Part shown: piece after piece, positions 3 through 45,394 of the stretch | How positions within the stretch are numbered: position 1 is the stretch's first letter | Layout of the letters: every line of letters starts with the position of its first letter | DNA from: an uncultured Caulobacterales bacterium | GTDB lineage: Bacteria > Pseudomonadota > Alphaproteobacteria > Caulobacterales > Maricaulaceae | Reading direction: 5' to 3' | NCBI GenBank assembly: GCA_964561235.1 | Contig: CAZLOV010000003.1 | Location: 1-45,904, forward strand | DNA: 45,904 nt | Notes under the pieces: generated by a model | The model's input: only the letters and a program-made list of their open reading frames with translations | What the model was told of the DNA's origin: nothing | The model's database searches: none | Position numbers and translations under genes: made by a program

Positions 3-836
3 TCCAAGCCGGTCACCTGGTTCCCGCCGATGTGGGCGTTCGGCTGCGGCGTGGTTTCGTCCGGCGCGCTGGGGCTGAACACGCTCGGGCTTCTATTCGC
101 CGGCGTGCTTCTGGCGGGTCCCATGCTTTGCGCGGCCTCGCAGGCGGTCAGCGGCTGGTTCGACCGCCATGTCGACGCCATCAACGAGCCTGACCGGCCC
201 ATCCCTTCCGGGCGCATTCCCGGCCGCTGGGGACTTTGGCTGGCCATCGGCTGGTCGGCCGCAAGCCTGGTCCTCGCGGCTTTTCTCGGTCCCTGGGTTC
301 TTGTCGGCGCGGCGCTTGGCGTCGCGCTGTCCTGGGCCTACAGCGCCCCGCCCGTGCGGCTGAAGCGCAGCGGGATCTGGGGCCCGCTTTCGGTGGGCTT
401 CTCCTATGAGGGGCTCGCCTGGTTCACAGGCGCGGCCGTCATGGCGCAGGCGCTTCCAAGCGTCGAGGTCATCACGCTTGCAACGCTCTACAGCCTTGGC
501 GCCTACGGCATCATGGTGCTCAACGATTTCAAGGCGATCGAGGGCGACCGCCAAATGGGCGTGAACTCGCTGCCCGCCACGCTCGGGCCGGAGCGCGCAG
601 CCTGGATCGCCTGCGCGGTCATGGCGATCCCGCAGGCCGCCGTGATCGCGCTGCTGGCGAGCTGGGACCGGCCGATCCATGCCGGCCTGGTCGCTCTCTC
701 CCTACTGCTGCAGCTTGCATGCATGGCGCGCCTCATGCGCGATCCCAAAGCGCTGGCGCCCTGGTACAATGCGACCGGCGTCATGCTCTACGTGCTCGGC
801 ATGCTGGCCGCCGCCTTCGCGGTCTCAAGCCTGTGA
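3..836 (+). CDS. bchG: Bacteriochlorophyll synthase (UbiA-family prenyltransferase), 5' end outside window
   Basis: The frame is open from the window edge (SKPVTWFPPMWAFGCGVVSSG...). It has a UbiA-type motif context (HVDAINEPDRPIPSGRIP; VLNDFKAIEGDRQMGVNSLP) and is polytopic. It sits directly upstream of a pucC-like gene and bchP, as in photosynthesis gene clusters. Confidence 0.9.
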   Translation, partial: SKPVTWFPPMWAFGCGVVSSGALGLNTLGLLFAGVLLAGPMLCAASQAVSGWFDRHVDAINEPDRPIPSGRIPGRWGLWLAIGWSAASLVLAAFLGPWVLVGAALGVALSWAYSAPPVRLKRSGIWGPLSVGFSYEGLAWFTGAAVMAQALPSVEVITLATLYSLGAYGIMVLNDFKAIEGDRQMGVNSLPATLGPERAAWIACAVMAIPQAAVIALLASWDRPIHAGLVALSLLLQLACMARLMRDPKALAPWYNATGVMLYVLGMLAAAFAVSSL

Positions 837-2182
837 CGCGCGCGGGCGCGCCTCTGGCGGAAGCCGCCTCGATCGGCTGGATCGGGATCATCCGGCTCGG
901 GCTCGTACAGGCCTCGCTCGGCGGGATCGTTGCGCTGACGACCTCCACGCTCAACCGCGTCATGGTCGTCGAGCTGGCGCTGCCCGCCGTTCTTCCAGGC
1001 GCGCTCGTCGCGCTCCACTATGCGGTTCAGATCAGCCGTCCGCGCTGGGGCCATAGCTCGGATCAGGGCGGCGCGCGCACGCCCTGGATCATCGGCGGGA
1101 TGGCGGTTCTGGCCGCAGGCGGCGTGCTCGCCGCGCTGGCGACGGCATGGGCGGCGTCCGCGCCGGTCTTCGGCATGCTGCTTGCGGTCGTCGCATTCGT
1201 GCTGATCGGCGGCGGGGTCGGCGCAGCGGGGACATCGCTCCTTGCGCTCCTCGCCACCAGCGTCACGCCGGCCCAGCGCGGGCCGGCCGCCTCGATCACA
1301 TGGATCATGATGATCTTCGGTCTCGCCGTCACCGCCGGATCGGCCGGGGCGGTGCTGGATCCGTTCACCCTGACGCGCCTTGTCCTCGTAACGGCCGGGG
1401 TTTGCGCGATCGCGTTTTCGCTGAGCGTCGTCGCCGTCTGGGGCCTTGAGCGCCGCGGCCGCGCTGTCGCTTCGCCTGACGCGCAGCCCGCGGGCGAGGC
1501 CGGTTTCCGGACGGCGCTGAAGGAAATCTGGGCCGAGCCGAGGGCGCGGCGTTTCACCGTTTTCGTCTTCGTCTCCATGCTCGCCTACAGCGCGCAGGAT
1601 CTCATTCTGGAACCCTTCGGCGGGCTGGTTTTCGGTCTGACCCCGGGTCAGTCGACCCAGCTCGGCGGGCTGCAGCATGGCGGCGTGCTCATCGGCATGA
1701 TCGCCGTCGCCGTGCTCGCCAATCGCGTCGGCGGCGGCTTCGGCCGGCGCCAGACCTGGGTGATTGGCGGGTGTGCGGCGTCGAGCCTGGCGCTGGCGGG
1801 ACTTGCGGCTGCGAGCTTCGCAGGCCCGGGCTGGCCGCTGGCGCCGACGGTGTTTCTCCTGGGCGTCGCCAATGGCGGCTTCGCCGTCGCGGCCATCGGC
1901 GCGATGATGGGGCTCGCCGCGGCAGACGGACCAGGCCGCGAAGGCGTGCGCATCGGGCTCTGGGGCGCATCGCAAGCCATCGCTTTCGGACTGGGCGGAT
2001 TTCTTGGAGCCGCCGCGCTGGATGCGGCGCGCGCCGTCTTCGACAGCCCGCAACCGGCTTTCGCCATCGTCTTCACCGCAGAGGCGGTGCTGTTCCTGAT
2101 CGCCGCGCGGCTGGCGTTCCAGGTGGATGAGACCCAACCCGCGCGAGAGCGCGCGCCGCAGCTTGCAGGAGGCGCATCATGA
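833..2182 (+). CDS. PucC/LhaA-family (BCD) MFS protein of photosynthesis gene clusters
   Basis: The N-terminus (IIRLGLVQASLGGIVALTTSTLNRVMVVELALPA) is typical of LhaA/PucC proteins, and the protein has about 12 hydrophobic segments. The GTG at 833 overlaps the bchG stop (GTGA). The ATG at 719 offered by the ORF track lies inside bchG and is not used here. Confidence 0.8.
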   Translation: MTRAGAPLAEAASIGWIGIIRLGLVQASLGGIVALTTSTLNRVMVVELALPAVLPGALVALHYAVQISRPRWGHSSDQGGARTPWIIGGMAVLAAGGVLAALATAWAASAPVFGMLLAVVAFVLIGGGVGAAGTSLLALLATSVTPAQRGPAASITWIMMIFGLAVTAGSAGAVLDPFTLTRLVLVTAGVCAIAFSLSVVAVWGLERRGRAVASPDAQPAGEAGFRTALKEIWAEPRARRFTVFVFVSMLAYSAQDLILEPFGGLVFGLTPGQSTQLGGLQHGGVLIGMIAVAVLANRVGGGFGRRQTWVIGGCAASSLALAGLAAASFAGPGWPLAPTVFLLGVANGGFAVAAIGAMMGLAAADGPGREGVRIGLWGASQAIAFGLGGFLGAAALDAARAVFDSPQPAFAIVFTAEAVLFLIAARLAFQVDETQPARERAPQLAGGAS

Positions 2183-3375
2183 CGCAGAACACGCTCAGCT
2201 ACGACGCCGTCGTGGTCGGCGGCGGACCGGCCGGGGCGACCGCGGCCCGCGCGCTCGCCCAGGAAGGCGCATCCGTGCTGCTTATCGACAAGCCGGGCCG
2301 GATCAAGCCGTGCGGCGGCGCCGTGCCGCCCAAGCTGATCCGCGAGTTCGACATTCCCGACAGCCAGATTGTCGCGCGCACCCGCGGCGCCCGGATCATC
2401 GCGCCGTCTGGAACCGAGGTCGATATGCCGATCGGCGAGGGTTATGTCGGGATGGTCGACAGGGAGCATTTCGATGAGTTCCTGCGTCAGCGCGCCGCTC
2501 TCGCCGGCGTGGATCGCCGCGACGGGGCCTTTGAAAGCTTCGAGCGCGACCCGGACGGCCGCGCCGTCGTGATCTTCACCCCGGCCGGCTCGGATGACGG
2601 GGTGCGCGTGCGCGCGCGGGTCGTCATCGGTGCGGACGGCGCGCGCTCAAAGCTGGCCCAGCAGACCGTTCGCGGCGCCGACAAGGTCAAGAGCGTTTTC
2701 GCCTATCACGAGATCATCCGCGCGCCGCGCGCCGAAGACGGCGGTCGATACGACCCGGAACGCTGCGATGTGGTCTATGACGGGCGCATCTCTCCGGATT
2801 TCTACGGCTGGGTGTTTCCCCACGGCGATTGCGCCAGTGTCGGCACCGGCAGTCAGGTGAAGGGCTTTTCGCTTCGCGGCGCGGTGAAGTCGCTGCGCGA
2901 AAGCTCCGGTCTCGCCGGATGCGAGGTGATCCGCCGCGAGGGCGCGCCCTTGCCCTACAAGCCCGCGCCGCGCTGGGACAACGGCCGCGACGTGGTGCTC
3001 GCCGGCGATGCGGCCGGGGCGGTCGCGCCGTCCTCCGGCGAAGGCATCTTCTATGCGATGACCTCCGGCGAGATGGCCGCGCAAGGGGCGGCTGAATTCC
3101 TCAAGACCGGCGATGCGCGCGCGCTTTCCGCGGTGCGCAGGCGCTTCATGAAAGCCCACGGCAAGGTCTTCTGGATCCTCGGGATCATGCAGCACTTCTG
3201 GTACCGCAACGACAAGCGCCGTGAACGCTTCGTGAAGATCTGCGCGGATGAGGACGTCCAGCGCCTGACCTGGCAGGGCTATATGGAGAAGGAGCTGGTG
3301 CGGCGCGACCCGGGCGCGCACGCAAAGATCTTCTTCAAGGATCTCGCTCATCTGGTGGGCCTGTCGCCCCGGTGA
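2179..3375 (+). CDS. bchP: Geranylgeranyl-bacteriochlorophyll/geranylgeranyl diphosphate reductase
   Basis: FAD Rossmann motif YDAVVVGGGPAGATAA, then IKPCGGAVPP and FYGWVFPHGD, which are characteristic of BchP/ChlP. ATGA overlap with the upstream gene. Confidence 0.9.
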   Translation: MTQNTLSYDAVVVGGGPAGATAARALAQEGASVLLIDKPGRIKPCGGAVPPKLIREFDIPDSQIVARTRGARIIAPSGTEVDMPIGEGYVGMVDREHFDEFLRQRAALAGVDRRDGAFESFERDPDGRAVVIFTPAGSDDGVRVRARVVIGADGARSKLAQQTVRGADKVKSVFAYHEIIRAPRAEDGGRYDPERCDVVYDGRISPDFYGWVFPHGDCASVGTGSQVKGFSLRGAVKSLRESSGLAGCEVIRREGAPLPYKPAPRWDNGRDVVLAGDAAGAVAPSSGEGIFYAMTSGEMAAQGAAEFLKTGDARALSAVRRRFMKAHGKVFWILGIMQHFWYRNDKRRERFVKICADEDVQRLTWQGYMEKELVRRDPGAHAKIFFKDLAHLVGLSPR

Positions 3376-3653
3376 CCGCCCTGTTCGAAAGCGGCCGGAT
3401 CATTGATCTGATCCTTCTGGTCGTTCTTCTGGAAGCGGCGGCGCTGATGGCGTTCGCCCGCGTGCGCGGGCGCATGAGCCGGCTGGACGCTGCGGGCCTG
3501 CTTGCGCCGGGGGTCTGCCTGATGCTTGCGCTGCGCGCTGAAATGACCGGTGCGCCAAACGAAATGACGGCGGCCATGCTGGCCGCCGCCTTCGTCTTCC
3601 ACCTGTGGGATGTCGCGCGCCGGCGCAAGGCCCCGGCGCGCGAACCGAATTAG
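3372..3653 (+). CDS. Hypothetical small membrane protein (93 aa) translationally coupled to bchP
   Basis: The GTG start overlaps the bchP stop (GTGA at 3372-3375). It has 2-3 hydrophobic segments (IIDLILLVVLLEAAALMAF; LLAPGVCLMLAL; AAMLAAAFVFHLW) and a basic C-terminus. No family recognised. Confidence 0.45.
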   Translation: MTALFESGRIIDLILLVVLLEAAALMAFARVRGRMSRLDAAGLLAPGVCLMLALRAEMTGAPNEMTAAMLAAAFVFHLWDVARRRKAPAREPN

Positions 3654-3656
3654 CGA

Positions 3657-4319
3657 TTACTCGCCGGCGTTCTGCTCGCCGCCGTTTTCCGCCATGTAGG
3701 CGATCACGTTCGCCCGGTCCTGCGGATCCGGCAGCCCCGGGAACGCCATGTAGGTGCCCGGAATGTATTCCTGCGGGTTTTCGAGATATTCAAACATCAC
3801 CTGCTTGGTCCAGGTGATGCCGGAATTGGCGTTGGCGTCGGAATAGCGGAAGCCTTCCACGGTCCCGGCTTCACGGCCGAAAATGCCGTAAAGCGAAGGC
3901 CCGACCCGGTTCACGCCCTCTTCGAGCACGTGGCAGGAGCTGCAGCGCAGGAATACGCGCCGGCCCGCCGCGGCGTCGCCGGTCAGCGAGGCGAAGGTCA
4001 CGCCGCCTTCGGACGGCTGCTCTTCTTCGGCGGACGCCATCTCGGTCGCGTCCTCTATGGCGTCGCTGGCGGCAGCCTCGGCGTCTGCAGCGGTTTCCTC
4101 CGCAGCTTCCGCAGCATCCGCCATGGCCTCATTGGCGGCGGCGGCCGCCGTTTCGGTCGCCGCAGCAGCCTCGTTCGCCGCAGTGGAAGCGGCTTCCGTG
4201 GCCTGGGTCGCCGCAGACGACGACTGGTTCGAGTCCGACGAAGATTCGCCGCCGCCGCCGCAGGCGGCGAGCATCGCGGAAGCCGCGACCATTCCGAGCA
4301 ACGTGGATGTACGTTTCAC
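3657..4319 (-). CDS. Lipoprotein-anchored class I (c2/mitochondrial-type) cytochrome c with long Ala/Glu/Thr-rich tether
   Basis: GTG start at 4319, preceded by GGAGGAGA. Signal peptide plus lipobox (LLGMVAASAMLAAC), then an ~84-aa low-complexity acidic linker. The C-terminal domain carries the heme motif CSSCH, GPSLYGIFGR, YLENPQEYIPGTYMAFPG (axial Met) and ANVIAYM. The longer 318-aa ORF in the track is an unsupported N-terminal extension. Confidence 0.85.
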   Translation of the reverse strand: MKRTSTLLGMVAASAMLAACGGGGESSSDSNQSSSAATQATEAASTAANEAAAATETAAAAANEAMADAAEAAEETAADAEAAASDAIEDATEMASAEEEQPSEGGVTFASLTGDAAAGRRVFLRCSSCHVLEEGVNRVGPSLYGIFGREAGTVEGFRYSDANANSGITWTKQVMFEYLENPQEYIPGTYMAFPGLPDPQDRANVIAYMAENGGEQNAGE

Positions 4320-4417
4320 GCTGTCTCCTCCCTTCCGGTGTTTGACGTGCCAGATACTAGCGTCACTTCGCCACGAGGCCAGCCTTCGACAAAAAAATCC
4401 ATACCTTCCGTGCATGT

Positions 4418-5005
4418 TCAATGGCCGGCTGAGGCGTTCGCACCGGCTGCGCTGTTGTCGCGGGCGGCAAGGGCGAGAGCGATCTGGGCGAAACCGAAGA
4501 AGACGGCGTCCACTCCGAAGATGAGCCCGAGCGCCCAGAGCGCCGCACCTGGAAGCGCCAGCCATAACAGGACGCCGAGCAGGAACGAGATCGCCCCCGA
4601 GGCCAGCATCCACGGCCAGGCTTTCAGCGGGCGCGCCTGAAAAGCCGAAGCGACACGAAGCGCGCCGCCCGCCAGCAGATAGGCGATCAGAACAAATGTC
4701 AGCGTGATCACGCCCGCGCCGGGAAAGGCGATCAGGGTGACGCCGGCGACCACGGCGAGCAGGCCGAACAGCGCAGCGCCGAGAATGCGGCCGGTGCGGC
4801 GCATTTGAAAGGCGCGCACGATTTCGACCCCGCCCAGCGCCAGCAGCAGCGCTCCGACGGCGAAGCCGACGCCGAACGAGGCTGCGAGCGGATAGACCAG
4901 CGCCAGCGTGCCGATCACGATCGCGGCGACGCCGGTAAACCAGAGCATGCCGCGGTGCGGCGCGAATGCGCGTGCGGCGGCGTCCGGGTTTGCGGTTGCG
5001 AGCAT
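4418..5005 (-). CDS. HdeD/DUF308-like integral membrane protein
   Basis: ATG at 5005 preceded by GGAAGGAAA. About six Gly/Ala/Leu-rich TM segments with the repeated pattern typical of DUF308 (GVAAIVIGTLALVYP..., LLGVLLWLALPGAALWALGLIFGVDAVFFG). Confidence 0.65.
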   Translation of the reverse strand: MLATANPDAAARAFAPHRGMLWFTGVAAIVIGTLALVYPLAASFGVGFAVGALLLALGGVEIVRAFQMRRTGRILGAALFGLLAVVAGVTLIAFPGAGVITLTFVLIAYLLAGGALRVASAFQARPLKAWPWMLASGAISFLLGVLLWLALPGAALWALGLIFGVDAVFFGFAQIALALAARDNSAAGANASAGH

Positions 5006-5237
5006 GCAGTTTCCTTCCGGTTGCGTGCAGAGCGCTTGCGGGCGCGCTGCCCGATCAACGCGGTCCGGCCCGGCAGGTTCCTTCGATGCCCCAATGCGCG
5101 CGGACCGGCTCCATGCTTGCCCTGTGAGTAGGCTAGACATACAATTATCTTCAGACGAGAAAAATTCTCTGCAGCGCGGCTGACGGTTGCGTGCGGAGAC
5201 CGGACGGCAGGCGGCTGAACGGACACGAGGCGCCACT

Positions 5238-5612
5238 GTGACGCGAGCGTTTTGCCGGTTTGTCCCGGCCATGTTGACGGCGGTCGCGGCGGCGGCCTGC
5301 ACAAGCCCTGCGCCGCGTTCCGACGCGGGCGCGCCGCGCTCACCTTATGTCGTTTTGCTTTTTGACGAACCGACGGCGGCGCTTTCTGCGCCGGGTTGCG
5401 ACCCGCGCGGCGTCGAAAGCGTCGATGCGTTGAGCGCGTGCGTGCTCCTGGACGCCTTGGGCGCGGGCGCTGCGGAACGATCCCGCGACAGCTTCGAGGT
5501 GACGCGGGGCTTCTCGATCCTTTTGACCGACGCGGAAGCCGCTGCGCTGCGCGAGCACCCCTGGGTGCGCGACGTCTCTGCGGACGCGGTCGCCAGCCCC
5601 ACGCCCGAATAG
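5238..5612 (+). CDS. Small lipoprotein resembling a free-standing subtilisin propeptide / peptidase inhibitor I9 domain
   Basis: Candidate signal plus lipobox (FVPAMLTAVAAAAC). The body begins PYVVLLFDEP and ends GFSILLTDAEAAALREHPWVRDVSADAVA, the pattern of I9 pro-domains. It lies 21 nt upstream of the S8 protease. The start is uncertain (GTG 5238, ATG 5271 or ATG 5187). Confidence 0.5.
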   Translation: MTRAFCRFVPAMLTAVAAAACTSPAPRSDAGAPRSPYVVLLFDEPTAALSAPGCDPRGVESVDALSACVLLDALGAGAAERSRDSFEVTRGFSILLTDAEAAALREHPWVRDVSADAVASPTPE

Positions 5613-5633
5613 AACCCAGCCGCGAAGCGCCCG

Positions 5634-8600
5634 ATGAAAATGCTTGCCCGAACACTGCTTGCATCCGCCGCCGTCCTCCTGACGCACGCCGTTGCGAAGG
5701 CCGAAACTGCGCCGGCGCCGCCGCTTTCCGGTCCGGTCTCGCCCGCGACGGCGCAGCGCATAGCCGCTGGTGAGCGGGTGCCTGTAATCGTCTCGCTTGA
5801 TCTTGCAGGATATGGCGCGCCTGGCGCGCTGATGAGCGATTCCGAGCTGGCCCGACGGACGGCGGCTCTGTCGGAAACCCGCGATCGCGTCTTTGCGGAG
5901 GTGTTCGGGGAGACGTTCATCCGCGAGGCGGACGGCCCGTCCTTTGCTTTTGAACCGGTTGCGGAGCCGCCGCGCGTCTACCGGGAATTCAGCCTGTTTC
6001 CCGGCTTTGCGGTGGAGGCGGACGCGGAGTTGCTTTCGCGGTTGCGCGCCCATCCGCTGGTGACGTCGATCCACGAAGACGCCGTCGCCCGCCCGCTCAC
6101 GGATGCAACGCCCGGCATTATCGGCGCGGACGCCGTATGGGCGGCGGGCTTCGAAGGCGCAAACGGCTCGGTGGCCGTTCTCGACACGGGCGTCGAGCTG
6201 GAGCACAGCGCAACGGAAGACGCGATCATCGCAAGCGCCTGCTTCAACACCGACATCGCCGACCGTTCCTCGTCGCTGTGTCCCGGCGGCGTTGAGGAGG
6301 TCATCGACCTCACCGGCGGCTCCGCCGGCGACAGCTGCGTTGAAGATGATATTGATCCGGTCAACGGCGTGGACGGCTGCTACCACGGCACTCACGTCGC
6401 CTCCACGGCGGCGGGGCGGCCGGTGACGCTTCGCAGCGGGACCACCGTGCAGGGTGTGGCGCGCGGCGCCGACATCGTCGCGGTGAACGTTTTCAGCCGT
6501 TTCGTCGAGGCGGAATGCGACGAGGAAGACGAGCCCGGCCCGTGCGTTAGAAGCTATTCCTCCGACCAGCTCGCCGCGCTTGAATGGCTGTTCGCCAATC
6601 GCGAGGCGCTCAACCTGCGCGCGGTGAACATGAGCCTCGGCGGCGGCGAGTTCACGTCGCCGTGCTTGAGCAATCCCCTGCGCTCGATCGTTACGGCGTT
6701 GCGCGGGGCGGGCGTCGCCACCGTCATTTCCTCGGGCAATGACGGCTTCGCCAACGCCATCAGCGGTCCGGCCTGCATTCCCGAAGCCATTTCGGTCGGC
6801 GCCACGACGGATGCGGACGCGGTCGCAAGCTTCTCGAACTCATCGCCCGATCTCGACCTGCTCGCCCCCGGCGTGCGCGTGCTCGCGGCCTGGCAGACGG
6901 AAACGCCGCCTGCCGGCGAGAATTGCGTCATCAATAATGCCGAGCCCAGCGGGAACGGGGAGTGCAACTGGTTTGCGGAAAGCTCCGGCACCTCCATGGC
7001 TGCGCCGCATGTGGCCGGGGCCTTCGTCCTGCTGCGCCAGGCGTTTCCCTCCACCAGCGTGGACGACGTGCTGGAGGCGTTGAAATTCACCGGCCTGCAG
7101 GTGCTCGACGTCAACGGCATCACCCGCAGCCGCATCCGCGTTGACGCGGCGTTCGACCTGCTGAGCCGCGGGGGCGCGTTCGCCGGAGGCGTGGAACTCA
7201 CCCCGCTGGAGGCTTACCGCGTCTCCGGCGAGGCGGGCGTCCCCGGCAGCTTCGCGTCGAAAACCTACACTCTTCAGAATACGGGCTTCTCCACGCGAAC
7301 CGTGACGATCATCGAAGCTCCCGCGTGGGTCGCTCCCGAGCGGTCGAGCTTCAGCATCACGCCGATGAGCACGGCGTCCCTCGTCCTCGGCGTGAACATC
7401 GACTCGCTGCCGCAATCCGCAGCGGCGGGCGAGGTTGTGATCCAGATCGGAACCGAGACGATTTCCGTGCCCGTTTCAGTCCAGGTCTCGAGGACGTTCA
7501 GTTCGGCGGAGCTCGGCCCGTTTGAATGGACCGGCGACCGGCGATCGACCACCTCCAGCGTGTTCCGCATCGTCGGACTGGATTCTGGTCCGCCCGAAGC
7601 GATCGATATCGCCCTCGCCAACGCAATCGCCGGCGATTACAGCGGCAACTTTTCCGACTGTAGCCTCACGATCAGGCCGGAGCGGTTTTCCAATTCAGAG
7701 TTCGTCATCAATTCGAGCGATTTTGAAGATTGCGGCGATTTCAATCGAGCAGATGTCACCTTCCGCGTGACCGCGGCGCTTGCCGACATCCAGAACGGCC
7801 TGAACGCGCGACGCTTCGGGGTGAACAATTCCGGCGGATTGACGGATTTCGGTTTCGACCGCGACGCGACCGTGACGCCGTCGGCCGCCGTGACACGCGC
7901 CTCTGCAAGCGCTGGTCTCGCCACATCGCTGCAGCGTGCCGCCGACCCGGGCTTTACAGCGCCGGTGCGGAGCGTTGACGCGCCGGCCGGCGCCGCGCCG
8001 TTACAGGCCGGGACCGCGCAGGCTGAGTACGGACCGTTTGAGTGGACGGGCGACAGCCAGTCGTTCACCGGCAGCGTTTTCCGACTGACGGGCCTGATCA
8101 ACGCGGCGCCGTCGGGTGTCGAGATCGCCATCGATAATGCAACGGCGCCGGGCTATGCGGGCGCTTTTACGGATTGCGCGCTGACCATCCGTTCAGAGCG
8201 ATACAGGAATGGCGAGTTCGTGATCTTTCCGTCCGATCTCGCCGATTGCGGCCCCTTCATCCGCGGCGATCTTCGCTTCAGGGTGACGGCCGATGCGGGC
8301 GATATCGCCCTGCTTCCGCAAATGCGCCGCTTCGCGATTACCAAAGCGGGCGGGCTTACCGATTTTGGTTTCGATCTCTTCCCTGAGCCGGCATCGGCGC
8401 TCACGCCGATCGCAGGGACGGACGAAGGGTTTGTCGAGTTCGGACCGTTCGAATGGGCCGGAAGCCCCAATGCAGCGACCACAGCGATCTTCCGCCTCGT
8501 CGGCATCGATGCGACCCCGGTCTCCATCGACGTGGCGCTCGATTCCGCGCTCACTCCGGGATATCTCGGCGAATTCTCGGACTGCAGCCTGATCGTCACG

Positions 8601-9209
8601 CCGGCGCGGCATTCCGGGCGCGAGTATCTCATCTTCCCGGATGACCTCGGTGTTTGCGGAGATTTCGGCCGCGCGGACGTCCGCTTCCGCGTGCGGGCCA
8701 GAACAGCCGATGCGCCCGGCGGGCTGACCATGCGCCGTTTCGGCATCGGTTCAATCGGCGACATCACGAATCTGAGCTTCGATCATGACCCGTCGCCGAA
8801 CAGCCGCGTCATCGCCACCCCCGCCGGCGCGCCGCCCGGCACGGCTGCGGTGGAGTTCGGACCGTTTGAGTGGACGGGCGACCGCAACTCCGTGACCGTC
8901 CATGTCTTCCGCATCACGGGCCTGGAGAACGCGGGTCCGACGAGCGTGGAGATCGCTGTCGATGACGCCTTCAATCCGGCCTATGCCGGCGATTACTCCG
9001 ATTGTTCGCTGACGATCCGGCCGGAACGTTACGCCGCCGACGAGTTCGTGATTTTCCCGACCGATTTCGCAGACTGCGGCGACTTTGTTCGCGGCGATCT
9101 TCGGTTCCGCGTGCTTGTGGATGCGAACGACGCCGCCGACGGCCTTCGGATGCGGCGGCTGGCGGTGCTCCGCGCCGGAGGATTTACGGACTTCGGGTTC
9201 GATCAGTAG
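5634..9209 (+). CDS. Secreted S8 (subtilisin-family) serine protease with N-terminal I9-like propeptide, a beta-sandwich-like spacer and four C-terminal tandem repeat domains
   Basis: Signal peptide MKMLARTLLASAAVLLTHAVAKA. Propeptide-like FPGFAVEADAELLSRLRAHPLVTSIHEDAV. Catalytic Asp (VAVLDTGVE), His (CYHGTHVASTAAG), oxyanion Asn (NMSLGGG) and Ser (SGTSMAAPHVAG). Confidence 0.9.
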   Translation: MKMLARTLLASAAVLLTHAVAKAETAPAPPLSGPVSPATAQRIAAGERVPVIVSLDLAGYGAPGALMSDSELARRTAALSETRDRVFAEVFGETFIREADGPSFAFEPVAEPPRVYREFSLFPGFAVEADAELLSRLRAHPLVTSIHEDAVARPLTDATPGIIGADAVWAAGFEGANGSVAVLDTGVELEHSATEDAIIASACFNTDIADRSSSLCPGGVEEVIDLTGGSAGDSCVEDDIDPVNGVDGCYHGTHVASTAAGRPVTLRSGTTVQGVARGADIVAVNVFSRFVEAECDEEDEPGPCVRSYSSDQLAALEWLFANREALNLRAVNMSLGGGEFTSPCLSNPLRSIVTALRGAGVATVISSGNDGFANAISGPACIPEAISVGATTDADAVASFSNSSPDLDLLAPGVRVLAAWQTETPPAGENCVINNAEPSGNGECNWFAESSGTSMAAPHVAGAFVLLRQAFPSTSVDDVLEALKFTGLQVLDVNGITRSRIRVDAAFDLLSRGGAFAGGVELTPLEAYRVSGEAGVPGSFASKTYTLQNTGFSTRTVTIIEAPAWVAPERSSFSITPMSTASLVLGVNIDSLPQSAAAGEVVIQIGTETISVPVSVQVSRTFSSAELGPFEWTGDRRSTTSSVFRIVGLDSGPPEAIDIALANAIAGDYSGNFSDCSLTIRPERFSNSEFVINSSDFEDCGDFNRADVTFRVTAALADIQNGLNARRFGVNNSGGLTDFGFDRDATVTPSAAVTRASASAGLATSLQRAADPGFTAPVRSVDAPAGAAPLQAGTAQAEYGPFEWTGDSQSFTGSVFRLTGLINAAPSGVEIAIDNATAPGYAGAFTDCALTIRSERYRNGEFVIFPSDLADCGPFIRGDLRFRVTADAGDIALLPQMRRFAITKAGGLTDFGFDLFPEPASALTPIAGTDEGFVEFGPFEWAGSPNAATTAIFRLVGIDATPVSIDVALDSALTPGYLGEFSDCSLIVTPARHSGREYLIFPDDLGVCGDFGRADVRFRVRARTADAPGGLTMRRFGIGSIGDITNLSFDHDPSPNSRVIATPAGAPPGTAAVEFGPFEWTGDRNSVTVHVFRITGLENAGPTSVEIAVDDAFNPAYAGDYSDCSLTIRPERYAADEFVIFPTDFADCGDFVRGDLRFRVLVDANDAADGLRMRRLAVLRAGGFTDFGFDQ
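7509..9203 (+). repeat. Four tandem protein-level repeats (~117 aa each) inside the S8 protease
   Basis: Copies occupy 7509-7859, 8025-8375, 8436-8783 and 8853-9203. Shared blocks: E[LYF]GPFEW[TA]G; FR[IL].G; [FY][ST]DC[SA]L[TI][IV].[PS][EA]R; E[FY][VL]I[FN][PS].D...CG.F.R.D[VL].FRV; RR[FL]; GG.TDFGFD. Each copy has two conserved Cys about 27 residues apart. Confidence 0.85.
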
Positions 9210-9282
9210 GCGCAGCCGGGGTTGACACAGATCGTGTGGAGACGACCTCCGGGACAGGCAAAGCAGCCCGGAGCCGGCGCAC

Positions 9283-10158
9283 ATGACCTTCACGCTTCTG
9301 GATGGCGGAACGGGTCAGGAACTCATCCGCCGCGCGCAACGCACGCCCTCTCCGCTCTGGTCGGCGGACGTACTCGGAGAGCGGCCCGATCTGGTCGAGG
9401 CGGTCCATGCGGACTTTCTCGGCGCGGGCGCGGACGTTGTCACGCTCGCCTCCTACAGTGTCACGCCCGCCCGTCTGGCGCGCGCCGGGCGGGAGGCGGA
9501 ATTCGAGCCGCTCCAGGCCGCCGCGGTGACCGCCGCGGAAGCCGCTCGCAACCGTATCCGGCCTGAAGGACGCGTGGCGGGTTGCGTGCCGCCGCTGCCG
9601 GGCAGCTACCGTCCTGGCGAACGGCTCGCCAGGGCGCGCGCGGAAGCGGAATACGCCCGGATTGTCGAAGCCCAGTCCGGCGGCGCGGACCTTTATCTCT
9701 GCGAGACATTGGCGTCGGTCGCGGAAGTCCGGCTCGCCGTGCGGGCCGCCGCGCGCAGCGGGCGCGAGGTCTGGGCGGCGATGACGGTCGCCGAGGACGA
9801 CGGGACGAAGCTGCGCTCGGGAGAACCGCTGCGCGCAGGGGCCGACGCTGCGCTGGAGGAAGGCGCCGACGCCGTGCTGGTCAACTGCTCTCCGCCCGAA
9901 GCCGTGAGCGCAGCGATGGAGGTCCTGCGGCCGCGCACGCAGCGTTTTGGCGCTTATGCGAACGGCTTCGTCACCACCGCGCCCTATCAGGGCGAGGCGA
10001 CCGTGGATGCGCTTGAAGTCCGCCGGGATGTCGGGCCGCAGGCGTACGCCGCGTTTGCAGCGGACTGGCGCGACGCCGGGGCCTCGATCATCGGCGGATG
10101 TTGCGAGATCGGGCCGGCGCATCTTCGCGCGCTGGACGCGCTGCGGCGCGCGGCCTGA
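9283..10158 (+). CDS. Homocysteine S-methyltransferase family protein
   Basis: N-terminal LLDGGTGQEL, LVNCSPPE and C-terminal GGCCEIGPAHL (zinc-binding Cys motifs of the Pfam S-methyl_trans family). Confidence 0.8.
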   Translation: MTFTLLDGGTGQELIRRAQRTPSPLWSADVLGERPDLVEAVHADFLGAGADVVTLASYSVTPARLARAGREAEFEPLQAAAVTAAEAARNRIRPEGRVAGCVPPLPGSYRPGERLARARAEAEYARIVEAQSGGADLYLCETLASVAEVRLAVRAAARSGREVWAAMTVAEDDGTKLRSGEPLRAGADAALEEGADAVLVNCSPPEAVSAAMEVLRPRTQRFGAYANGFVTTAPYQGEATVDALEVRRDVGPQAYAAFAADWRDAGASIIGGCCEIGPAHLRALDALRRAA

Positions 10159-23996: not shown

Positions 23997-25247
23997 ATGA
24001 CCGGACCTGTCCAATCCACCTCGCGCACCGAGACCGCCTGCCGCTCCTGCGGGTCGGCGTCGCTCTCGCCGGTGCTCGACCTGGGCCGCACGCCGCTCGC
24101 CGACCGGCTGATCGATCCCGCGCGCGCAGGCGAACCGGAGCCGGTGTTTCCGCTGAAGGTCGTCTTCTGCGAGGACTGCACCCTCGTGCAGATCACTGAA
24201 ACGGTGGCGCCGGAAATCCTCTTTGCGGACGCGTATCCGTATTATTCGAGCTTCTCGCCCGCCTTGCTGGCGCATTCGCGCGCCAACGCGCTCGACCGCC
24301 TGGCCGAACGCCGGCTCGGACCGGACAGCCTGGTCGTCGAGCTGGCGAGCAATGACGGCTATCTGCTCAAGAACTACGTCGAGGCCGGCGTGCCCGTGCT
24401 TGGAATCGATCCCGCCGAAGGGCCTGTGAAGGCCGCGCGCGAGGCCGGGGTGCGCACGGAGCTCGCCTTCTTCACCCGCAGCCTCGCCGAGCGCCTCGCC
24501 GCCGAAGGGGTCCGCGCCGACATCGTCCACGCCAACAACGTGCTGGCTCACGTGGCCGACACGAACGGCTTCGTCGCCGGGATCGCCGCGCTCCTGAAGG
24601 ACGACGGCGTGGCGGTGATCGAGGCGCCTTATCTCAAGCCTCTGATCGATCACGTTGAATTCGACACGATCTATCATGAGCACCTGTGCTATTTCTCGGT
24701 CACCGCGCTGGATGCGCTGTTCCGCCGGCACGGTCTTCATCTCAACCGCATCGAGCATCTCGCCATCCATGGCGGGTCGCTGCGCCTGTTCGTGGAGACG
24801 CGCGAAGACAAGCAATCCAGCGTGCTGGATCAGCTCGCGCTCGAGACGGCCGAGGGTCTCGATCGTCTGGCGTATTTCCTCGATTTCTCCGACCGCGTCG
24901 CTGCGCTGCGCGACCGGCTGACCTCGGAGCTTGCCCGTCTGAAGGGCGAAGGCGCCCGGATCGCCGCCTACGGCGCGGCGGCGAAGGGTGCGACCATGCT
25001 GAATTTCTGCGGCGTCGGCGCCGATGCGCTGGACTTCGTGGTCGACCGCAACGTGCACAAGCAGGGCAAGCTGATGCCCGGCGCCCGGCTTCCGGTGCTT
25101 CCGCCCGAGGCCTTGCTGGAGCGCCGGCCGGATTACACGCTCGTGCTCGCCTGGAATTTCGCAGACGAAATCCTGGAGCAGCAGGCGGCCTACCGCGAGG
25201 CGGGCGGCCGCTTCATCATTCCCGTTCCCGAATTTCACATCGTCTGA
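23997..25247 (+). CDS. SAM-dependent NDP-hexose C-methyltransferase-like protein (TylCIII architecture)
   Basis: N-terminal Cys4 ribbon (CRSCGS ... CEDCTLVQ), then ADAYPYYSSFSP, SAM motif VVELASNDGYLL, and a C-terminal C-methyltransferase-type domain (IAAYGAAAKGATMLNFCG ... FVVDRNVHKQGKLMPG). Confidence 0.8.
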   Translation: MTGPVQSTSRTETACRSCGSASLSPVLDLGRTPLADRLIDPARAGEPEPVFPLKVVFCEDCTLVQITETVAPEILFADAYPYYSSFSPALLAHSRANALDRLAERRLGPDSLVVELASNDGYLLKNYVEAGVPVLGIDPAEGPVKAAREAGVRTELAFFTRSLAERLAAEGVRADIVHANNVLAHVADTNGFVAGIAALLKDDGVAVIEAPYLKPLIDHVEFDTIYHEHLCYFSVTALDALFRRHGLHLNRIEHLAIHGGSLRLFVETREDKQSSVLDQLALETAEGLDRLAYFLDFSDRVAALRDRLTSELARLKGEGARIAAYGAAAKGATMLNFCGVGADALDFVVDRNVHKQGKLMPGARLPVLPPEALLERRPDYTLVLAWNFADEILEQQAAYREAGGRFIIPVPEFHIV

Positions 25248-25261
25248 TCCGGAGAGACGCC

Positions 25262-26485
25262 ATGACCGCTGATGTGCTCGCGTCCGGCGCGCTGGAGGGT
25301 GCGGCCGGGCAGGACGCCTGTCCCGCCTGCGGCGGCGATCGGGTGCGCATTTTCTACGAGGTGCGCGAGGTTCCCACCAATTCGTGCCTCCTGTTCGACA
25401 CGCGCGAAGCGGCGGCGGCGTGTCCGACCGGCGATGTCCGCCTGGGGGCGTGTGCGTCGTGCGGCTTCATCTACAACACCGCGTTCGATCTCTCGAAAAC
25501 CGAATACTCCGGCCGCTACGAGGAGACCCAGGGCTTTTCGCCCACATTCTCCCGGTTTCACCGCGAACTCGCCGCGCGCCTGATCGAGCGTCACGACCTG
25601 GCGGGCAAGCGCGTGCTGGAGATCGGCTGCGGCAAGGGCGAGTTCCTGCTTCTGCTTTCCCAGATGGCCGGAGTGACGGGGCTCGGCGTTGATCCGAGCG
25701 CGCGTCAGGACCGCATCGAGGGCGTGGAGGGGGCCGCGCGCGTCACGCTTGTGCCGGAATACTACACCGAGGCCCATGGCGCGGCGGACGCCGACATGGT
25801 CGTCTGCAAGATGACGCTGGAGCATGTTCCGGCCGTGGAGGCCTTCCTGCGCGTGATCCGGCGCAGCCTCGAAGGCCGCGAGGATACGCGGGTCTTCTTC
25901 CAGATACCCGAGGCGCTGCGCATCCTTCGCACGTGCGCCTTCGAGGACATCTACTACGAACACTGCTCGTATTTCACGCCGGGATCGCTCGCGCGCGCTT
26001 TCCGCCGCGCAGGGTTCGACGTGACCGATCTCGCCACCGAATACGATGAACAGTATCTGACCATCGAGGCGGTTCCGGCCGCAGACGCATCGCTCCTGCC
26101 GCTTCCCGCCGAGGATGACCAGGCGGAGATCGCCAATCTCGTCGAGAGCTTTCCCGACCGCGTCGCAGCCGCGCACGCGCGCTGGCGCGGCAGCGTGAAC
26201 GAAGCCGCCGCGCAGGGCCGGACGGTGGTCCTCTGGGGTTCGGGCTCCAAGGCGGTGTCGTTCCTGACGACCTTGAACGTCGGCGAGCGCGTGCGCGCCG
26301 CCGTCGACATCAACCCGCACCGGCAAGGCAGCTTCATGCCCGTCACCGGCCATGAAATCGTGTCGCCGGAAGCGCTCGTCGATCTCCGGCCGGATCTCGT
26401 CATCGTCATGAACCCGATTTACGTGCCGGAGATCAAAGCCGATCTCGACAAGCTCGGCCTGTCGCCGGAGGTGTTGAGCCTGTGA
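25262..26485 (+). CDS. Second SAM-dependent methyltransferase with the same Zn-ribbon / Rossmann / C-terminal-domain architecture (divergent paralogue)
   Basis: CPACGG ... CASCGF ribbon, SAM motif VLEIGCGKGEFL, C-terminal VVLWGSGSKAVSFLTTL ... AVDINPHRQGSFMPVTG. The ATG at 25262 is used; the 192 upstream codons in the ORF track overlap the previous gene out of frame. Confidence 0.7.
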   Translation: MTADVLASGALEGAAGQDACPACGGDRVRIFYEVREVPTNSCLLFDTREAAAACPTGDVRLGACASCGFIYNTAFDLSKTEYSGRYEETQGFSPTFSRFHRELAARLIERHDLAGKRVLEIGCGKGEFLLLLSQMAGVTGLGVDPSARQDRIEGVEGAARVTLVPEYYTEAHGAADADMVVCKMTLEHVPAVEAFLRVIRRSLEGREDTRVFFQIPEALRILRTCAFEDIYYEHCSYFTPGSLARAFRRAGFDVTDLATEYDEQYLTIEAVPAADASLLPLPAEDDQAEIANLVESFPDRVAAAHARWRGSVNEAAAQGRTVVLWGSGSKAVSFLTTLNVGERVRAAVDINPHRQGSFMPVTGHEIVSPEALVDLRPDLVIVMNPIYVPEIKADLDKLGLSPEVLSL

Positions 26486-26648
26486 TCGGGACGCGGCCGC
26501 ACCTGGCCCCGAAGGCCTTCGCCGGCCTGACGGCGGCCGCGGCCGCATTAACCCTGTTTTCCGGCTTCAGGCCCGCCGCGCTGAAATCGCGTCGCCTCGA
26601 GGACAGTGACCGGCGGAGACGGCCCGCAACGATGCGGGAGTCCGCGGT

Positions 26649-27863
26649 GTGAGCCGGCGCGTCGTCATCATCAATGACGAGGCTGTCGCCAAGGGCGGCG
26701 CGACGGGTCTCGCCGTCAAGGCCGCGATCGGGCTTTCGCGACGGGGCCGCGACGTCAGCTTCATCGCCCGCAAGCCGCAGTCGGAGCCGCGGGATCTCCA
26801 GGACGCGGGCGTGACGCTTGACTTGATTGAGGGCGTGCGGGTCGGGACCGGCGGGGCGGGAGGCCTTGTTTCAGGCCTGTGGAACGCCGAGGCGGCGCGC
26901 CGCGTCGCGGAAACCGTCGCGCAGGAGCCGTCCGACACCGTGTTTCACGTCCACAACTGGACGCACTTTCTTTCGCCCGCGATCCTCGCCGCCCTGAAGC
27001 CCGTCTGGCCGCGCACGGTCCTTCACGCGCATGACATGTTCCTGTTCTGCCCGAACGGGGCGTACTTCAACTACAGAACCGATCGCGACTGCACGCTCAC
27101 CGGCGGCGGCGCAGCCTGCGCGGCGGTCAATTGCGACAAGCGCAACCGCGCCCACAAGCTCTGGCGCGTGGCCCGGCACTGGACCAGACAGGCGGCGCTC
27201 GACCTTGCCCGTTTTGGCGGGCGCATCGCGCTCATCCACCCGGGCCAGCGGCCGTATTTCGAGGCGCACGGCGTTCCGGGCGAGGTGCTCGTCGATCTGC
27301 GCAATCCCGTGGCGGCCTGCGAAGCGCCGCGCGTGGAAGCCGAGCGCAACGCCATGGTGCTGTTCCTCGGGCGCATGACCAGCGCGAAGGGCCCCGACCG
27401 GCTGCTCGAGGCGGCGCGGCGCGCGGGCGCGCCCGCCGAACTCGCCGGCGACGGCGAACTCAGAACGGCGCTTGAGGCCGCCTATCCCGAGGCGGCCTTC
27501 CATGGGCACGTGTCCGCCGAGGCCGTGCAGGCGCTGCTTCGCCGCGCGCGTGTCGTGGCGATGCCGAGCCGCGCGCCCGAGCCTTTCGGGCTCGTCGCGT
27601 GTGAAGCGCTCGCCGCGGGCGTGCCGGTGATCGCCAGCAGCAATGCGCTCGTTGCGGGGGAGATCGAAGCGGGCGGCGCCGGACTTGCGCTCGACATGGA
27701 CGACATCGACGGTTTCGCCGCTGAACTCCGTGCGCTGACCGGCGACGACCAGCGCGTCAGGGCGATGAGCGAGGCGGCTCGCGCGACCGCGTTTTCGATC
27801 GCCTCTCGTGAAGAGGCCTGGCTCGACGGACTGGAGGCGCTCTACGCGGAGCGGCTCCGTTAA
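26649..27863 (+). CDS. Family 4 (GT-B) glycosyltransferase
   Basis: N-terminal VVIINDEAVAKGGATG and C-terminal EPFGLVACEALAAGVPVIAS (EX7E region). Confidence 0.8.
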   Translation: MSRRVVIINDEAVAKGGATGLAVKAAIGLSRRGRDVSFIARKPQSEPRDLQDAGVTLDLIEGVRVGTGGAGGLVSGLWNAEAARRVAETVAQEPSDTVFHVHNWTHFLSPAILAALKPVWPRTVLHAHDMFLFCPNGAYFNYRTDRDCTLTGGGAACAAVNCDKRNRAHKLWRVARHWTRQAALDLARFGGRIALIHPGQRPYFEAHGVPGEVLVDLRNPVAACEAPRVEAERNAMVLFLGRMTSAKGPDRLLEAARRAGAPAELAGDGELRTALEAAYPEAAFHGHVSAEAVQALLRRARVVAMPSRAPEPFGLVACEALAAGVPVIASSNALVAGEIEAGGAGLALDMDDIDGFAAELRALTGDDQRVRAMSEAARATAFSIASREEAWLDGLEALYAERLR

Positions 27864-27877
27864 GGGGGAAGACGACG

Positions 27878-29047
27878 GTGCGCGTGCGCCTGCTCAACGT
27901 CGCCTACAGCGCCAATCTCGGGGACGGCCTCCTGGCTGAATGCCTCTCCGCACGCCTGCGCGCCGCGCGGCCGGAGCTTGAGATCGAATGGGTCGACCTG
28001 AGCGGCCGCACGCGGTTCGGCACGGTCGGCGGCGGCGGACGCGGCCTGCTCCTGAAGATGCTCACGGCGTCCCCCGGGCCGGTCCGGCGCGCGGGCGTCC
28101 TGATGGCGCACGCCTATCTCCGCCGGAAGACGCTTGCGCCCCATTTCGGGACAGCGCTGGCCGGCGCGGAAGCCCTGATCATCGGGCCGGGCGCCCTGAT
28201 CGCGGATCAGGATCTCAACTTCCCCGTCAAAATCGCCGCCGCCCTGGCCTCGCCCGCGGCGGCGGACGCGCCGGTGCACGTCTATGGCGTCGGCGTCGGC
28301 GGCGCCTTTTCGCCGCGCGGCGAGGCCCTGTTCCGCCATGCCTTCTCCGCCCGCCGCGTGGCGAGCGTGGCGGTGCGCGACAGCGTCTCCGCCGAACGCT
28401 GGAACAAGGGCCTTGGTGGGGCCGCCGGATGCCCGGCGCAGGTCGTTTTCGATCCCGGCGTTCTGACGAGCCGGGTCTGGCCGGAGCCTGAAGCCGGGCG
28501 CGGACCGCTGCGCATCGGCGTGATGAGCCCGTCGGAGATCGCCTATCACGCCGGGGGCAGCGCGACTGCGCCCGGAGCCGCGCTGGAATGGTACGGCGTC
28601 CTTGTCGAAAGACTGCGTGCGGCCGGGTGCGAAGTCGAACTGTTCAATAACGGAGGACCGCCCGATCGGGCCTTCATGAGGCGGCTGTCGGATTTCATCG
28701 CCGATCGGGGCGCTGAGCGTCCCGCATGCATACAGCCGGAGACCCCGGAAGACCTGGCCCGCGTCGTGGCGGGCTCGCGCGGCGTGATCGCACACCGCCT
28801 GCACGCGGTGGTCCCCGCCTTCTCCTACGGCGTTCCGGCCGTCTCGCTGGGCTGGGACGGCAAGGTGGCCGCCTTCGCCGAAGCGGTGGGACGCAGCCGG
28901 TGGCATGCCGCCGGATTCTCAGCGCCGCCGGAGAACATGGCGCGACTCCTGCTGGAGGCCGTGGAGGCCAAGGCCTGCGGAGATGATCGGAGTGGAGTGC
29001 TGGACGCCGCGGACGCGCAGATCGCTGCGCTCGCGGCGCGGCTCTGA
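27878..29047 (+). CDS. Polysaccharide pyruvyl transferase family protein
   Basis: N-terminal NLGDGLLAECL and C-terminal GVIAHRLHAVVPAFSYGVPAVSLGWDGKV, the pattern of the PS_pyruv_trans family. GTG start after GGGGGAAGA. Confidence 0.7.
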   Translation: MRVRLLNVAYSANLGDGLLAECLSARLRAARPELEIEWVDLSGRTRFGTVGGGGRGLLLKMLTASPGPVRRAGVLMAHAYLRRKTLAPHFGTALAGAEALIIGPGALIADQDLNFPVKIAAALASPAAADAPVHVYGVGVGGAFSPRGEALFRHAFSARRVASVAVRDSVSAERWNKGLGGAAGCPAQVVFDPGVLTSRVWPEPEAGRGPLRIGVMSPSEIAYHAGGSATAPGAALEWYGVLVERLRAAGCEVELFNNGGPPDRAFMRRLSDFIADRGAERPACIQPETPEDLARVVAGSRGVIAHRLHAVVPAFSYGVPAVSLGWDGKVAAFAEAVGRSRWHAAGFSAPPENMARLLLEAVEAKACGDDRSGVLDAADAQIAALAARL

Positions 29048-30067: not shown

Positions 30068-30197
30068 GACTGACGGAGCCGCTGAGCCCGTTGCCGGCGG
30101 ACGGCTGACCGCGGCCGGCTTGGCAGGCGGCGTGCAAGACCGCGAGGTGCGTCCGTTTCCGGGGCGCGCGGAAGCGCCGAAGGCGCGCGGGCACGCC

Positions 30198-45280: not shown

Positions 45281-45361
45281 CAAGGTGACGGACGCCGGAT
45301 CGGTCGCATGACGCACGCCGCAACTCCTTTCCACCAGGCGCGGCGGCGCGAGTCGCTGCGC

Positions 45362-45394
45362 ATGAACTTGTATGGAGCATAATGAACAGCATAA
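45362..45394. promoter_or_regulatory. AT-rich patch with short direct repeats in the kinase / cyclase divergent intergenic region
   Basis: ATGAAC occurs at 45362-45367 and 45382-45387. AGCATAA occurs at 45376-45382 and 45388-45394. This is the only AT-rich patch in a 215-nt GC-rich spacer. A candidate operator or promoter element; function not established. Confidence 0.25.

Follow-up and report, generated by a model that had tools for sequence, protein, structure and literature searches.

The window analysed here is a 45,904-nt stretch of DNA from an uncultured Caulobacterales bacterium of the Maricaulaceae (GenBank assembly GCA_964561235.1, contig CAZLOV010000003.1, positions 1 to 45,904 of the forward strand). 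Close to its start lies a gene for a 1191-amino-acid (aa) precursor of an exported S8 serine protease, in which a sequence-only reading, made without database searches, had noticed four tandem copies of an unrecognised domain. Four homologous segments do make up aa 624–1191 of this protein and, by the profile and structure comparisons reported below, their repeat unit represents a domain family that is new and of narrow distribution. The parts of the gene, with the small gene directly ahead of it, are as follows.

5187..5612, + strand: I9-like, stand-alone propeptide-like open reading frame (ORF) of 141 aa with a lipobox-like AAAAC, 21 nt upstream of the protease gene
5634..9209, + strand: whole gene, exported S8 serine protease precursor of 1191 aa with the C-terminal four-copy cassette (ORF list)
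5634..5702, + strand: Sec-type signal peptide MKMLARTLLASAAVLLTHAVAKA, with an AxA motif preceding E24 (read directly off the sequence)
5766..6104, + strand: N-terminal I9-like propeptide (Pfam Inhibitor_I9 and hhalign)
6162..7082, + strand: peptidase S8 catalytic domain, aa 177–483 (PF00082, E 3.8e-34)
7176..7502, + strand: beta-rich region of ~110 aa, aa ~515–623, between the S8 domain and copy 1 (P0003 alignment)
7503..7880, + strand: module copy 1, aa 624–749, Cys 676 and 700 (alignment/HMM)
7881..8018, + strand: linker 1, 46 aa, rich in Ala, Pro, Thr and Ser
8019..8390, + strand: module copy 2, aa 796–919, Cys 848 and 872 (alignment/HMM)
8391..8429, + strand: linker 2, 13 aa
8430..8798, + strand: module copy 3, aa 933–1055, Cys 984 and 1008, ending GDITNLSFD (alignment/HMM)
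8799..8846, + strand: linker 3, 16 aa
8847..9206, + strand: module copy 4, aa 1072–1191, Cys 1124 and 1148 (alignment/HMM and structure model)

An exported S8 protease with four C-terminal modules

The match to the S8 profile is accompanied by D184, H251 and S454 in the motifs DTG, HGTH and GTSM and by N369 in GND, the catalytic His being, as we take it from established knowledge of subtilisins, the first H of HGTH. Because these four residues occupy canonical motifs, the window protease looks active. In its propeptide, Pfam Inhibitor_I9 matches aa 115–151 (E 0.0041, below the curated cut-off), and an hhalign comparison with the family of the upstream I9-like ORF covers aa ~45–157. The precursor has 18 Cys in total, 10 of them in the catalytic part, beyond those of the modules. 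The beta-rich region of aa ~515–623 has no match in Pfam and is kept in S8 orthologues, as seen in the alignment with P0003, a protein that has the same architecture as the window protease and is 51% identical to it along the full length. This region is possibly another undescribed immunoglobulin (Ig)-like domain.

The starts of the four copies fall within 6 nt of those first read off the sequence, and the 65 identical residues between copies 1 and 4 equal the earlier estimate exactly. Other measurements differ from that reading: the repeat region occupies 48% of the protein rather than its C-terminal third, the modules are ~120 aa rather than ~117 aa long, and their two Cys (C53 and C77 in module numbering) lie 24 rather than ~27 residues apart. 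The motifs it had quoted were all recovered, except that copy 3, the most divergent of the four, ends in GDITNLSFD instead of GG.TDFGFD; copy 4 reaches the final residue of the protein (…GGFTDFGFDQ, then stop). The linkers are unequal in length (46, 13 and 16 aa) and rich in Ala, Pro, Thr and Gly, much as had been described, and the modules are acidic, with isoelectric points (pI) of 4.2–4.6.

Aligned with MAFFT, the four copies share 38 invariant columns and are 48–55% identical to copy 1, with pairwise identities of 0.44–0.63 across the set. A hidden Markov model (HMM) built from them matches related proteins with E down to 3e-184, and the homology of the repeats is therefore far beyond chance. 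Between copies, the DNA is 54–68% identical, with copies 2 and 4 at 68%, and Tandem Repeats Finder, run on 7000–9400, reported short low-complexity repeats only and no long-period array; the repeats are thus detectable at the protein level only.

The copies in the window resemble each other more (0.44–0.63) than do the copies within other family members on average (0.30–0.46), which suggests that concerted evolution has acted to some extent in this lineage and hints at partial gene conversion among its copies.

The module family, its fold and its cassette

Described relatives of the module were sought in Pfam, NCBIfam, the sequences of the PDB and, with Foldseek, in PDB and BFVD, and no significant match was found, so that the domain is as unrecognised as the sequence-only reading had supposed. 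With Pfam-A at E ≤ 1, three of the four copies gave nothing and copy 2 gave only a chance-level match to Gins51_C (E 0.047); NCBIfam returned no meaningful match for any copy; and 100 domains of the family, compared with Pfam at E ≤ 1, gave scattered weak matches, each in one member alone. No copy matched the HMMs for PPC (PF04151), P_proprotein (PF01483), fn3, PKD, CARDB, Big_x, Cadherin-like domains or carbohydrate-binding modules (CBMs), and sequence-profile searches of all PDB sequences with the module gave 0 matches. The module thus shares with the C-terminal domains of known subtilases (PPC, P-domain, FN3, PKD, CARDB, Big) the position of a beta-sandwich after the S8 domain of an exported protease, but differs from them in having no HMM match at E ≤ 1, in occurring also in protease-free proteins and in its fixed number of four copies.

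Domains tied to particular secretion or anchoring routes were likewise not found. Neither the full protein nor any copy matched, in Pfam or NCBIfam, the C-terminal sorting domain (CTD) of the type IX secretion system (T9SS; Por_Secre_tail / TIGR04183), and there was no HMM match to SLH (PF00395) or related surface-layer anchoring families. The T9SS CTD of the Bacteroidota, which couples export to surface attachment, is similar in being a C-terminal beta-sandwich common to many unrelated secreted proteins; it differs in sequence (no HMM match), in phylum and secretion system, and in being single rather than tandem, and nothing in the window protein indicates cleavage or attachment to anionic lipopolysaccharide (A-LPS). 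No autotransporter (type V secretion system) barrel was matched in Pfam, the C-terminus of the protease consisting of ~120-aa sandwiches, and an NCBIfam match to EprS covers the S8 core only, scoring 17 bits where the cut-off is 1700. Substrates of the type I secretion system (T1SS) of the repeats-in-toxin (RTX) kind carry GGxGxD nonapeptide repeats and an uncleaved C-terminal signal, usually without an N-terminal signal peptide, and have few Cys; the window protease has no HemolysinCabind match, possesses an N-terminal Sec signal and has 18 Cys. Assignment of the modules to the T9SS CTD, PPC, P-domain, RTX or autotransporter families was rejected, as none has HMM support.

Copy 4 was modelled with AlphaFold2 from a 100-sequence alignment. 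The model is of high predicted quality (predicted local distance difference test, pLDDT, 95.6; predicted template modelling score, pTM, 0.88) and has two short helices beside about nine strands that form a sandwich. It supersedes an earlier AlphaFold model made from the four window copies alone, which had a pLDDT of 77.7 and whose Foldseek matches were noise. Taking E ≤ 0.001 or a template modelling score (TM) ≥ 0.5 as the mark of a known fold, Foldseek found nothing at E ≤ 0.001 in PDB, where ClfA came out best (E 0.032 at a TMq of 0.39) and the top 50 matches reached a TMq of 0.43 at most, and nothing significant in BFVD (best E 0.066). Public annotations of the orthologues read 'S8 family peptidase' or 'hypothetical protein' only, and literature searches for a subtilisin of Oceanicaulis or a surface layer of Maricaulis turned up no description of this protein or domain. 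The general kind of the module, a C-terminal beta-sandwich appendage of exoproteins, is familiar; what sets it apart is the lack of a structural match to a confident model, the fixed four-copy cassette on unrelated heads and the link to a surface-layer-like protein associated with a type II secretion system (T2SS), the last two of which are taken up below.

A filter-free HMM profile search of 1.84 billion cluster representatives (E ≤ 0.001) yielded only 59 proteins, and the family is therefore rare and confined to one lineage; the named members and loci are from Oceanicaulis spp., with others from metagenome-assembled genomes (MAGs) of Pseudomonadota. The filter-free search was needed, as a word-indexed homologue search with the four-copy profile recovered two gene-call fragments only. 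Nineteen matches were strong (below E 1e-30), and every full-length protein among them carries exactly four copies at its extreme C-terminus, as do all five complete four-copy genes of the related loci (L006–L010). The heads that precede the cassette are of three kinds: an S8 protease (P0003, P0009, P0014 and P0016–P0018), an array of Ig-like Big_13/DUF4625-like domains (P0005, P0007, P0008, P0010, P0012, P0013, P0015 and an ORF in L001) and an FG-GAP head (P0006). Both the S8-head and the Ig-head versions occur in Oceanicaulis, an example of the former being WP_022701937.1 of Oceanicaulis alexandrii.

Comparison of copies by position in different proteins gave mean identities of 0.37, 0.33, 0.48 and 0.54 for copies 1 to 4, at or above nearly all of the cross-position means (0.28–0.47). 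Copies 3 and 4 show a clear positional signal and copies 1 and 2 a marginal one, with copy 2 the weakest and copy 1 tied with the pairing of copies 1 and 4. Since same-position copies are generally more alike, we conclude that the four-domain cassette is ancestral and has been recombined as a unit with different heads; positional orthology likewise makes the array old and maintained as a unit of four. That the copies are positionally orthologous across proteins less than 50% identical, together with their DNA identity of 54–68%, bears out the earlier view that the repeats arose neither by recent duplication nor as an artefact of assembly.

Within the family, C53 and C77 are both present in 62 of 62 domains from multi-copy proteins and both absent from 34 of 34 single-copy domains. 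Because the two Cys covary in this all-or-none fashion, we infer that the module is disulfide-bonded, C53 to C77, which supports the previous proposal of one disulfide per module; a Cys conserved as a pair and a signal peptide are what an extracellular disulfide-bonded module would have. Other residues are near-invariant across 100 domains (W9 in 94, R22 in 94, R82 in 92, R104 in 100 and D84 in 85), and these surface-type residues suggest a conserved interaction site.

Several further sequences touch on the extent of the family. In L001, a 1044-aa ORF with an Ig-type head and four modules (3383..6517) was missed by the source gene caller, which called only the last 165 aa (P0001), and its counterpart on the MAG contig L002 (74..1006) is interrupted, within the repeats, by a stretch of N; such faults leave the family under-represented and fragmented in protein databases. 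P0023, a 944-aa protein from NCBI/ENA metagenome data, is more distant: it differs in its N-terminal region, shows a Cys pattern of its own and carries a related module in four degenerate copies (per-copy E 2e-6 to 5e-3), and the four-copy design may thus extend past the core family. Set aside from the matches were P0046 (repeat-rich, nSTAND-like) and P0060 (a SEA-domain mucin) as low-complexity artefacts, and P0022 as a chimeric or fragmentary gene call.

One-copy relatives and genomic context

The weaker matches (~35, E 1e-10 to 1e-4) are mutually homologous proteins of ~460–530 aa, in each of which a single module forms the C-terminus and is also the best-conserved region. They have a Sec signal peptide, a pI of ~4, an Ala+Thr+Gly content of ~36% and less than 1% Lys, and Pfam detects no domain in them; a word-indexed search with this one-copy family returned metagenomic proteins only. 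In every informative context (L011, L013, L015, L016/L017, L018 and L019) the one-copy gene lies directly beside a T2SS operon with gspE, gspF, gspG and minor pseudopilins, and with a secretin in five loci; some of these loci also contain two methyltransferases, a prepilin peptidase or a GspK-like gene. Genes for deoxythymidine diphosphate (dTDP)-rhamnose precede the one-copy gene in L013, L015, L016/L017 and L018, with a sulfotransferase as well in L015 and L018. In L019, epimerase/RmlD-type and sulfotransferase genes are found nearby instead, and L011 shows the T2SS side only. Besides the T2SS operon, the usual neighbours of the one-copy genes are rmlABCD or sulfotransferase genes.

Two of these loci come from named organisms. 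The complete genome of Oceanicaulis sp. LC35 (L018, 8431..9837) encodes a 468-aa one-copy protein whose C-terminal module matches with E 5.7e-37, and Maricaulis maris (L019, 7377..8840) has a 487-aa equivalent inside the T2SS cluster (module match E 4e-11). The GspE proteins of L015 and strain LC35 share 87% identity. Four-copy proteins occur in Oceanicaulis, a genus that also has the T2SS-linked one-copy locus, and from the LC35 and M. maris loci it follows that the four-copy lineage possesses, in addition, a surface-layer-like protein that is linked to a T2SS and has the module at its C-terminus.

This arrangement has a precedent in Aeromonas salmonicida, in which the surface-layer gene vapA and a dedicated T2SS (sps) lie inside the O-antigen cluster, which includes rmlB (PMC4483657). 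Like VapA/AhsA-Sps, the one-copy relatives are candidates for a ~50-kDa major surface protein, acidic and low in Lys and Cys, whose gene adjoins T2SS genes and mostly also O-antigen sugar (rml) genes. The likeness is one of gene arrangement in the one-copy relatives, not in the window protein, and the lattice is putative here; no module common to VapA and proteases is known. According to a recent survey, genes for an RsaA-type surface layer are absent outside the Caulobacteraceae (PMC12700997); the one-copy proteins are candidate surface-layer proteins in a group reported to be without RsaA.

Around the protease gene itself, the nearest neighbour is the small I9-like ORF at 5187..5612. Homologous small genes stand 13 nt upstream of S8 orthologues in an Oceanicaulis genome and a marine contig (L020, 7500..7988; L021, 7547..7987), so that a gene for 141–162 aa with a lipobox-like signal lies 13–21 nt ahead of the S8 gene in three lineages. 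The window ORF is homologous to the propeptide that the protease itself carries (hhalign, probability 96% and E 1.5e-9), and all three small proteins have a weak Pfam Inhibitor_I9 match. Its product is probably a periplasmic lipoprotein partner of the protease, acting as inhibitor or chaperone.

Farther downstream, from ~17100 to 45400, the window contains a large surface-polysaccharide cluster, with a Wzx-like flippase, several GT2 and GT4 glycosyltransferases, nucleoside-diphosphate-sugar enzymes, a C-methyltransferase, a Wzy_C ligase or polymerase, a BBP2_2 porin, a Wzz/tyrosine-kinase and an initiating sugar transferase. Pfam gave no match for its long ORFs at 25235–26548, 27860–28906, 30009–31328, 33588–35000 and 43757–45382. 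This cluster could make the envelope glycan that is proposed below as the module's ligand.

At the other end of the window (30..3375) lies the end of a photosynthesis gene cluster, comprising a UbiA-family bchG-like gene, PucC/LhaA and a geranylgeranyl-reductase-like FAD protein (bchP). Because bchG, pucC and bchP stand at the window start, the source is probably an aerobic anoxygenic phototroph, which fits the phototrophy genes found by the above survey in Maricaulaceae, including Oceanicaulis and Alkalicaulis (PMC12700997).

Possible roles of the module

What might such a module do? The reading we prefer, and hold tentatively, is that it is a lineage-specific C-terminal device of Maricaulaceae and related marine Caulobacterales that would target proteins exported by the T2SS to the cell surface or retain them there. 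Because the cassette follows three unrelated heads, and because the module closes a surface-layer-like protein linked to T2SS and O-antigen genes, generic targeting or anchoring to the cell's own envelope is favoured, and the evidence points away from a substrate-binding role specific to the protease.

On this proposal, the precursor would cross the inner membrane via Sec, in keeping with the signal peptide seen in the sequence, and would fold in the periplasm with one C53–C77 disulfide per module. The protease would be restrained by its own I9-like propeptide and, presumably, by the co-transcribed propeptide-like lipoprotein, and the folded protein would exit through the T2SS, as the gene linkage of the one-copy relatives suggests. 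Four flexibly linked modules, bound multivalently to some repetitive component of the envelope, could then retain the enzyme on the surface of its own cell. That component would be either an O-antigen or capsule containing rhamnose, or the putative surface-layer lattice, the subunit of which carries the module at its end. The protease head would accordingly act as a surface-displayed enzyme, with the Ig-like and FG-GAP heads displayed likewise. Export by the T2SS is supported by the disulfide pattern and the many Cys of the catalytic part, both of which fit periplasmic folding, and a periplasmic intermediate by the propeptide-like lipoprotein gene conserved just upstream. The absence of any Pfam or NCBIfam signature for the other export or anchoring routes (RTX/T1SS, autotransporter barrel, T9SS CTD and sorting-signal families) is in favour as well.

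Several points weigh against surface retention. First, there are no T2SS genes within the window. Second, typical polymer-binding anchors such as SLH and CWB2 are basic, and the acidic modules would require bridging cations to bind an anionic glycan. Third, the surface-layer identity of the one-copy proteins is drawn from composition, size and gene context alone. Fourth, the fold search was confined to PDB and BFVD, and the fold could have a relative elsewhere whose function is known and different. Finally, the linkage to T2SS genes fits a role in secretion recognition equally well. A basic anchor of the SLH kind, binding anionic polymers, was also considered as a model and rejected, the modules being acidic.

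A more far-reaching version of the proposal, possible in our view and rather doubtful, is that Maricaulaceae and related marine bacteria, reported to lack the RsaA-type surface layer of Caulobacter, display proteins by a system of their own that has gone unrecognised. In it, a T2SS-exported surface-layer protein and large exoproteins (S8 protease, Ig-repeat and FG-GAP proteins) would share a disulfide-optional module, by which all of them dock to one envelope glycan or lattice. Such a system would parallel, in Gram-negative cells and coupled to a T2SS, the logic of SLH (PF00395) and of CWB2 in Clostridioides, with a new fold. As in those systems, one module family occurs in a putative surface-layer subunit and, in tandem, on exoenzymes and adhesin-like proteins, and stays conserved in surface proteins that vary elsewhere. 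The differences are that there is no sequence match, that the hosts are Gram-negative alphaproteobacteria, that the modules are acidic, apparently disulfide-bonded and present in four copies rather than three, and that anchoring is putative.

Secretion recognition leads to an alternative that we consider unlikely, namely that the module is a structural secretion determinant, a 'cargo tag' read by the T2SS of this lineage, with no role after export. It would account for the position of the one-copy genes immediately next to gspE in six contexts, for the module being the most conserved part of the one-copy proteins and for its invariably C-terminal location whatever the head. A single copy suffices in the T2SS-linked proteins, however, and a strict set of four copies, positionally orthologous and flexibly linked as is typical of multivalent binding, is hard to explain by tagging; to our knowledge, no conserved tag domain has been established for T2SS substrates.

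The sequence-only reading had suggested that the modules target the enzyme to a polysaccharide or to prey or host surfaces. Binding of an external substrate or surface in the manner of a CBM or adhesin (algal or particle polysaccharide, or a protein matrix) has an appeal, since it would bring the heads to food particles or attachment sites in hosts that are marine, surface-attaching stalked bacteria; the beta-sandwich fold fits, tandem copies would supply avidity, and the best Foldseek neighbours, weak and non-significant, are Ig-like adhesin and pilin domains and CBM-like sandwiches (ClfA, BcpA, AgI/II, CBM). Nonetheless, three functionally unrelated heads carry the same cassette; a homologous copy closes a surface-layer-like protein of the same lineage that is linked to envelope glycan genes, which argues for a shared ligand on the cell itself; and the Pfam scans detected no aromatic platform or known CBM signature. 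The new evidence thus points away from prey or host surfaces as targets, and external binding too seems to us improbable. Least likely by some way is a passive stalk or spacer, or an oligomerisation or stabilising domain with no specific ligand: compact, disulfide-stabilised beta-sandwiches joined by linkers do resemble the Ig-like spacer arrays common in bacterial exoproteins, but such arrays usually vary in copy number and homogenise, whereas this one has a fixed four position-specific copies, near-invariant surface-type residues across 100 domains and, at the extreme C-terminus, nothing beyond it to be held.

If the module were only a passive beta-sandwich, it would be a routine new domain of unknown function; if it proves to be an anchor, it would be usable as a surface-display tag. 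Because it is small, confidently predicted and present in cultured strains with complete genomes, the retention hypothesis is directly testable. If correct, our analysis would add a protein domain family absent from Pfam, NCBIfam and PDB, and it points to a candidate surface layer with a dedicated T2SS in a group in which the survey found no RsaA-type genes (PMC12700997). It would also offer a first insight into how Oceanicaulis, Maricaulis and their phototrophic relatives retain enzymes and adhesin-like proteins at the surface after secretion.

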